Of a stretch of DNA of 64,000 nt, positions 61,009 to 61,800 are shown in pieces. The stretch is from Escherichia coli (GTDB lineage: Bacteria > Pseudomonadota > Gammaproteobacteria > Enterobacterales > Enterobacteriaceae). Within the stretch, counting starts at the first letter, position 1, and each line of letters begins with the position of its first letter. The notes beneath the pieces are model-generated. The model worked only from the letters and a program-made list of their open reading frames with translations, did no database searches and was not told the DNA's origin. The position numbers were made by a program, and so were the translations under genes. The stretch lies in the NCBI RefSeq assembly GCF_044647545.1, contig NZ_CP172818.1. One strand, 5' to 3'.

Positions 61009-61239
61009 TTTCGCTTTAAAACATATCATGAAACTGGGTATGTTTTGTCTGCCTGCTCTGGGATCGCCGGGGCGGGCATTTTTTTGCCTATTTAAGACAT
61101 TCCTGCAAATCAGCCAATGTTGCCATCAGTATCATAGAATCGACAGGCGATGGTTCAAACCCCACTCGCAGATAAAACTCACGGGCCTGGTCTGATAACG
61201 CATGGACCAACATTCCCCAAAAACCAATGATTTCACCCC

Positions 61240-61800
61240 CCTGTAGTACTCGTAGACCGGATCTCTCCCCCCCCACACCCCCCCCCTTATAATTTTTTTT
61301 CTTCCCAAAGACCACAAAATACAAAAAGGGGGTTTGTTTTTCGGGAAAATTCCTCCCGCAAATTTCAAACGGGGAAAAAAAGAAAAAAAAAAAAAAATTT
61401 TTTATATATAACAAAAAAAAAAAATGCCTTTTTTTTTTTTTTTTTTTTTTTTCTTTTTTTTCCCCCCAAAAAAAAAAAGGGATGGATTGTTTTTCTTTTT
61501 TTTTTTTTCCCGGGTTTTTTTTTTTTTTTTGGGTAAGGAGGGGGGGGGGGGGGGGTGGAAAAGAATAAAAAAAAAAAAATAATAAATAAAAAAAATAATT
61601 TTAAAAATTTTTTCTTTAATTAGCTCTCTTTCCCTCCCGCTCTCGGCCAGACAAAAAAAAAATTGTGTTTTTTTTTTTTTCCGCTTTTTGGTCGCCTGTT
61701 TTATAATATGGTGTTTTGTGTGTTTTATAAAAAATTATAAAATTTCGCGTGTGTGGGTTATTTTTTTTTCTTTTATTAAAAATATTTTTTTGGGTGTGGA
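61240..61800. repeat. Anomalous low-complexity tract made of long homopolymer runs (A, T, G and C runs up to ~30 nt), non-coding; probable sequencing/assembly artefact
   Basis: Seen directly: runs such as G16, T30 and A15 alternating with short normal-looking words; no intact ORF; normal sequence on both flanks. Confidence 0.7.

Follow-up and report, generated by a model that had tools for sequence, protein, structure and literature searches.

The open reading frame (ORF) at positions 61088-61414 of the Escherichia coli window, by which we mean the whole 64,000 nt stretch of DNA that was analyzed, closes with the authentic terminal part of a tacT2-like GNAT toxin gene. The tract into which it runs, at 61217-61795, most probably reflects a fault in the sequence record and is probably not a pseudogene. 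We hold this reading as a whole to be very probable. With slightly higher confidence, the state that makes the gene look like a remnant can be regarded as a property of the sequence record; we infer its technical origin from the pattern alone. On sequence grounds the intact form of the locus in related genomes is a TacAT2-like type II toxin-antitoxin operon lying between flgL and rne.

The ORF and its readable 3' end

The window carries flgK (58400-60043) and flgL (60055-61008) on the plus strand; after an odd interval comes rne on the minus strand, represented by its 3' part from 61908 to 63983 and beyond. The ORF listing places within the interval a minus-strand ORF of 108 aa with a TTG start at 61088-61414, exactly as the earlier note had described, with a poly-F stretch near its N-terminus. 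Only the last 129 nt of it (61088-61216, minus strand; 42 codons plus the stop) are real coding sequence. These are identical at 129 of 129 nt to the 3' end of the WP_000613626.1 coding sequence (CDS) in strains FDAARGOS_497 and ECONIH1, corresponding to codons 123-164 and the TAG stop, and in translation the C-terminal 42 of 42 residues are identical to those of the 164-aa protein. The GNAT motif-B segment with the catalytic Tyr137, which is the tyrosine of the 'EFYLRVGF' segment, falls inside this stretch. The C-terminal peptide that the earlier note had likened to a GNAT acetyltransferase motif is indeed identical to the motif-B end of WP_000613626.1.

Upstream of 61216 the frame crosses the 579-nt homopolymer-rich tract at 61217-61795. 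Weak residue similarity to RDAGLRVLQAAEVIGIR continues for about 20 codons more beyond that point, and the nominal start codon and first ~66 residues of the 108-aa ORF are biologically meaningless. An exact-product look-up in a public gene-call collection found the chimeric 108-aa product to be absent, and the sole occurrence of the 41-aa product read from an M start was a contig-end truncation in a metagenome contig of 721 nt.

Taken by itself, the ORF could be read as a chance frame in low-complexity DNA between genes, its likeness to a GNAT motif being fortuitous, given that its N-terminal two thirds are nonsense and that a Pfam search with the whole 108-aa ORF returned zero matches, even at E<=10. 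However, its final 129 nt match, without a single difference, a conserved and annotated gene that 686 genomes carry at this locus, and the intact toxin has 5829 homologous proteins at E<=1e-40, widespread across Enterobacterales, along with a solved structure at 74% identity. The chance-ORF null is refuted by the 129/129-nt and 42/42-residue identity to an annotated gene, and the probability we would leave to it is practically nil. The profile search proposed in the earlier note succeeded with the intact homologue (Acetyltransf_7, 7e-9) and failed with the window's own ORF, whose GNAT membership rests on the 129/129 nt identity to the intact gene and not on a profile test. That note had named the absence of both a homologous intact ORF and a GNAT hit as the sign of a chance ORF, and both are present.

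The intact operon in related genomes

Searches of complete E. coli genomes with the 207-nt clean segment (61009-61215) matched its flgL-proximal part in 5423 of 5426 genomes. Full-length matches were obtained in 685 of the 5426, the matched feature being annotated 'GNAT family N-acetyltransferase'. A wider query (window 60700-62100) against the complete E. coli genomes resolved two alleles of the flgL-rne interval, one 'empty', as in K-12 strain DH1, and one 'occupied' by the GNAT gene together with a gene for a 'DUF1778 domain-containing protein'. The occupied allele of FDAARGOS_497 (locus L001) has the order flgL, GNAT CDS, DUF1778 CDS, rne. Its GNAT CDS lies at L001 1904-2398 on the minus strand (495 nt, 164 aa, WP_000613626.1) and its DUF1778 CDS at L001 2395-2688, also minus (294 nt, 97 codons, WP_024946541.1). 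The DUF1778 CDS is upstream of and co-oriented with the GNAT CDS and overlaps its start by 4 nt in FDAARGOS_497, ECONIH1 and Escherichia sp. E4385. The operon of ECONIH1 is intact and identical to that of FDAARGOS_497, and E4385 shows the same rne-tacA-tacT-flgL-flgK arrangement with a toxin that is 96% identical.

Among 5426 complete E. coli genomes, 686 (about 1 in 8) carry the 785-nt operon and about 87% lack it. It occurs once per genome, is always chromosomal, and is at least 99% identical in 681 of the 686 genomes, with a minimum of at least 98.5%. The intact small ORF that the earlier note had envisaged between flgL and rne in other strains was thus recovered by nucleotide search in 685-686 genomes. 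Its idea of a small gene at this position was correct as far as a GNAT gene is concerned, yet this is not a lone acetyltransferase but the toxin of a pair, the antitoxin gene of which falls entirely inside the tract. Newer RefSeq annotations call the DUF1778 partner a 'type II toxin-antitoxin system TacA family antitoxin', while WP_000613626.1 itself is named just 'GNAT family N-acetyltransferase'.

The module is bounded by two terminator hairpins. On the left, the flgL terminator hairpin and its T-run occupy 61050-61087 on the plus strand (terminator-like site at L001 1851-1879), directly before the junction at 61087/61088. The right bound of the insertion is the rne terminator hairpin, an inverted repeat at 61866-61889 on the minus strand (terminator-like site at L001 2803..2780), which the allele alignment shows to be common to the occupied and empty alleles. 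In the empty K-12 allele, the place of the module is taken by a 68-nt segment unrelated to it. A MAFFT alignment hinted at a decayed toxin remnant in this K-12-type empty site, and the hint was rejected, as the 68-nt DH1 segment scored no better than shuffles (z=-0.7).

Two products of 260 aa in Logan assemblies (P0001 and P0004), both 100% identical to the toxin, combine PF08681 with GNAT domains. They resemble antitoxin-toxin fusions, which presumably arose through a frameshift or an assembly error at the 4-nt gene overlap.

Family assignment of the toxin and antitoxin

The intact 164-aa toxin is a member of the GNAT superfamily by profile match, with Pfam hits over residues 65-145 to Acetyltransf_7 (7e-9), Acetyltransf_10 (5.7e-7) and Acetyltransf_1 (7.1e-6). 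The antitoxin WP_024946541.1 matches TacA1 (PF08681, formerly DUF1778) at 3.3e-26, with an additional weak RHH signal, and the intact relatives display the DUF1778/GNAT two-gene operon architecture of type II toxin-antitoxin systems. The top PDB match of the toxin is chain A of 7AK7 (7.7e-76) and that of the antitoxin is chain C of the same entry (4.8e-44), the latter over its full length. NCBIfam left the toxin unmatched, its single hit to the antitoxin, YlcI/YnfO, fell below threshold (20.2 bits, cut-off 30), and PADLOC matched neither protein. A literature search for 7AK7, WP_000613626.1 and WP_024946541.1 returned irrelevant matches only, and no paper citing the E. coli proteins was found in it.

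Sequence comparison suggests that 7AK7 is the Salmonella TacA2-TacT2(Y137F) complex, because 7AK7 chain A differs from an abundant Salmonella enterica protein (P0062, 163 aa long, with 763 member sequences) at just two positions, M33I and F137Y, and also because TacT3 is excluded, being represented by 6G96, which is TacT3(Y143F) (PMC5959882). TacT2 is inactivated by Y137F and by R88G, while residue 29 is K in the active S. Enteritidis isoform and E in the weak S. Typhimurium isoform (PMC5959882). The E. coli toxin aligns with P0062 with no gaps at 74% identity and keeps F17, K29, R88 and Y137. The toxicity residues Y137, R88 and K29 are therefore all in the intact E. coli toxin, although only Y137 can be read in the window. 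For both partners the closest characterized relative is TacT2/TacA2.

A housekeeping GNAT that stands alone and acetylates proteins or small molecules, and so is no toxin, would fit the bare RefSeq name of the protein and the want of a specific NCBIfam or PADLOC model. Against this, the gene is paired with a DUF1778/TacA gene through a 4-nt overlap in every occupied genome listed, both partners match two chains of one toxin-antitoxin co-crystal, and the residues needed for TacT2 toxicity are conserved (PMC5959882). We consider a stand-alone enzyme highly improbable. A TacAT2-like toxin-antitoxin pair remains the preferred assignment, and the gene pair is already known in the sense that it is routinely annotated and that the mechanism is established in a 74%-identical homologue.

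The garbled tract and its surroundings

The anomalous tract (61217-61795, not assigned to a strand) holds 579 nt in place of 677 nt of the operon, namely toxin codons 1-122, all of the antitoxin gene and the beginning of the 5' UTR. Gene boundaries within the tract were mapped through a global alignment to the intact operon. The corrupted toxin codons 1-122 occupy 61217-61497 (minus strand), with 214 of 370 columns identical, and the whole corrupted DUF1778/TacA-type antitoxin gene occupies 61494-61779 (minus strand), with 180 of 302 columns identical (60%). The former segment should hold the acetyl-CoA-binding loop QGQGIGR as well as K29 and R88, and is no longer translatable.

Over the tract as a whole, 403 of 689 columns are identical to the intact operon (58%), with a global alignment score of 106, as compared with -29 +/- 8 for mononucleotide shuffles (z=17.5) and -67 +/- 12 for 20-mer block shuffles (z=14.7). 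Given colinearity of this strength, the tract is not random low-complexity DNA. Indels are biased towards deletion, 110 reference bases being missing and 12 extra, and A+T content is 70% against 50% in the reference operon. Homopolymer runs of at least 7 nt number 18 in the tract, 1 in the true operon and 30 in the other 63.4 kb of the window; those in the tract reach ~24 bases, and all four bases are represented. The substitution spectrum is mostly C/G to T/A. A wrong base equals an adjacent reference base at 125 of the 164 substitutions, where permutation of the wrong bases among sites produced 67 +/- 6 such cases and never more than 84. In 50-nt bins, identity declines gradually from the left edge of the tract through 88, 66, 64, 55, 46 and 43%, stays at 50-67% thereafter and is suddenly 100% again at 61796. 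The segment 61217-61795 is covered by none of the 5426 complete E. coli genomes.

The surrounding DNA presents a very different picture. Comparison with ECONIH1 gave 0 mismatches over window positions 59600-61087 and 61796-64000, and 0 mismatches in the BLAST blocks over 1-46500. The stretch 46000-61216 aligned to ECONIH1 as a single piece (15217 vs 15232 nt), a 15-nt gap being the sole difference in length.

A strong sigma-70-like promoter (ATGACA, 18 nt spacing, TATAAT) for the antitoxin-toxin operon is predicted by consensus scan at 61806-61835 on the minus strand. It matches the consensus at 11 of 12 positions in the intact locus (L001 2749..2720) and was placed on the window through the exact right-hand anchor, L001 2710 being window position 61796. 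The predicted promoter precedes the antitoxin gene and lies in clean window DNA, and its function as a promoter is likewise predicted from these features. A search for inverted repeats near it that could form an antitoxin operator yielded just 6-nt palindromes (ACATGT, ATAATT/AATTAT) and the rne terminator. The tract has one edge ~10 nt past the predicted -10 box, close to where transcription is predicted to begin, and its other end inside the toxin gene. The proximity of the edge to the predicted start may be a coincidence, odd as it would be for a random technical failure.

Private deletions in the record

The 15-nt gap corresponds to the absence from the record of ATGAGACATAACGAA at 61087/61088, in the space that separates the flgL terminator from the stop codon of the toxin gene. 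Each of the 685 occupied E. coli genomes contains ATGAGACATAACGAA, and at this site E4385 has a spacer of 16 nt that is related to it. Because of this gap, the best occupied genome reached only 93.2% over the 207-nt clean segment (222 nt vs 207 in the query). The resulting junction, TTTTTTTGC/CTATTT at 61087/61088, mimics the K-12 empty-site sequence TTTTTTTGCCTATTTTGC.

Two further deletions were identified relative to ECONIH1. At window position ~4518, 46 nt (AGGCGTTTTACCGAAAATTTCACGTCATAACAGGAAGCAGGCAGAG) are cleanly deleted, starting 5 nt past the putP stop. At ~17515-17518, dgcT has lost about 50 nt from its 3' end, which in ECONIH1 coordinates takes the last ~17 codons and the stop; this site is upstream of the tRNA-Ser at 17624-17708. 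The junctions at ~4518 and ~17515 occur in 0 of 5426 complete genomes, the best matches being split in two and spanning 287 and 291 nt, respectively, for queries of 241 nt. Three private, clean deletions in combination with zero substitutions in ~63 kb strengthen the view that the record has quality or editing problems.

Elsewhere in the window, Rfam matches at gathering level, all on the minus strand, were obtained for the Ysr251 antisense RNA (9178-9371), the ES056 sRNA (23309-23400), the ES036 (CssrF) sRNA (33495-33537) and the PyrC leader (42668-42717). These look like ordinary features of the chromosomal region.

Corruption versus decay

The earlier note had left it open whether the 5' part of the gene was corrupted or decayed. 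The smear-like signature of the tract and its substitution-free flanks uphold corruption and disfavor decay. Neutral decay does not produce about 30% substitution and 15% deletion within DNA that is otherwise free of substitutions, and we know of no bacterial mutational process that gives neighbor-copying, run-forming errors.

A natural pseudogene, in which the operon was truly destroyed by localized mutation and the homopolymer tract is genomic DNA, would be colinear with the operon, as the tract is. Toxin-antitoxin loci are also often lost or inactivated, in line with the ~87% of complete E. coli genomes that have no copy of this one, and the extent of the tract is roughly that of the transcribed portion of the operon. 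However, ~30% substitution and the loss of 98 nt would have to be confined to 579 nt while the compared ECONIH1 flanks stayed free of substitutions, and the errors copy their neighbors and build runs of up to ~24 nt, which would be highly unstable. Moreover, the 5426 genomes contain no intermediate state, with 681 of 686 operons at least 99% identical. We regard a natural pseudogene as very unlikely. Hypermutation of the DGR type, or another natural kind, was also considered and rejected, as the substitutions are not adenine-specific (they are mostly C/G to T/A) and copy neighbors. That the tract is real DNA, in which some unknown localized process beginning at about the transcription start turned the operon into shortened homopolymer runs, is to our minds extremely unlikely. 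If true, it would represent a transcription-coupled or targeted mutagenic scar that erased a toxin-antitoxin operon in place.

A record defect, the explanation we favor, would arise by low-quality base calling or consensus, by an assembly fault, or by later alteration of the record. The tract resembles low-quality consensus patches in assemblies, which likewise are sharp-edged blocks of deletion-biased, neighbor-copying, homopolymer-forming errors in otherwise perfect sequence. Familiar single error models differ from this record in that it shows runs of all four bases together with three clean private deletions.

The garbled 579-nt block and the three private short deletions amount to a practical data-quality flag for this 64-kb record. 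Care should be taken with calls of a 'pseudogene', 'novel repeat' or 'low-complexity island' based on 61217-61795, which should be treated as a data-quality problem until the reads are checked. The biological weight of the locus is small, since a routine TacAT2-like toxin is concerned that is present in hundreds of E. coli genomes and has a mechanism known from Salmonella.

Proposed function of the intact operon

Gly-tRNA(Gly) is almost the only substrate that TacT2 and the other GNAT toxins of clade D acetylate in vivo (PMC9177977). By analogy, the intact gene most likely encodes a TacT2-like toxin that acetylates glycyl-tRNA and is restrained by its DUF1778 antitoxin. With acetyl-CoA as donor, the toxin would modify aminoacyl-tRNA, chiefly Gly-tRNA(Gly), by acetylation of the alpha-amino group, and the acetylated aminoacyl-tRNA would block translation and so bring about growth arrest. 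The antitoxin would be expected to bind and neutralize the toxin and probably also represses the operon promoter, which survives at 61806-61835. Both the toxicity and the tRNA specificity suggested here are extrapolated from the 74%-identical Salmonella protein.

Comparison with known systems

The Salmonella enterica TacA2-TacT2 pair (7AK7; PMC5959882) is similar to the E. coli pair in consisting of a 97-aa DUF1778 antitoxin and a GNAT toxin of 163-164 aa. Its toxin shares 74% identity and the conserved F17, K29, R88 and Y137 with the E. coli protein, for which acetylation of aminoacyl-tRNA would accordingly be the expected activity (PMC9177977). The two systems differ in genomic location and by ~26% sequence divergence. 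In E. coli and E4385 the operon is placed between rne and flgL, whereas Salmonella tacAT2 (contigs L004 and L005) adjoins genes for a PAP2 phosphatase and a DsbD-like (ScsB-type) protein. These flanks rule out a shared flgL-rne position, so that a comparison for positional orthology with Salmonella tacAT2 gave a negative result, and because the Salmonella flanks are different we refer to the E. coli operon as 'TacAT2-like' rather than as a positional orthologue. The TacAT2-like module of Escherichia thus has a fixed flgL-rne slot, unlike the Salmonella site.

Behind 7AK7, weaker PDB matches of the toxin were 7F36/7F37, 7AK8 and 5FVJ (3.8e-44), all at about 1e-44, and distant ones were 5ZGN/5XUN (KacT; about 1e-19 to 4e-20), the 6AJM/6GTx group (about 1e-16) and 6G96 (2e-15). 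We take 5FVJ to be TacT and the 6AJM/6GTx entries to be AtaT. The Salmonella pairs TacA-TacT (5FVJ, 7AK8) and TacA3-TacT3 (6G96, 7AK9) belong, like the E. coli pair, to the GNAT/DUF1778 family that acetylates aminoacyl-tRNA. TacT and TacT3 share with the E. coli toxin the catalytic Tyr and a positive tRNA-binding groove, and TacT3 has an extra C-terminal helix (PMC5959882); their matches to the E. coli toxin (5FVJ and 6G96) are nonetheless much weaker than the 7.7e-76 of 7AK7.

AtaR-AtaT, AtaT2 and ItaRT of E. coli and KacAT of Klebsiella likewise combine a GNAT toxin with a DUF1778 antitoxin and acetylate charged tRNA (PMC9177977). The tRNA preferences within this group vary, AtaT being broad or directed at Met-tRNA(fMet) and ItaT preferring Ile (PMC9177977). 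In sequence, AtaT and KacT are distant from the E. coli toxin described here, as the E-values of the KacT and 6AJM/6GTx entries indicate, whereas Salmonella TacT2 is its closest characterized relative.
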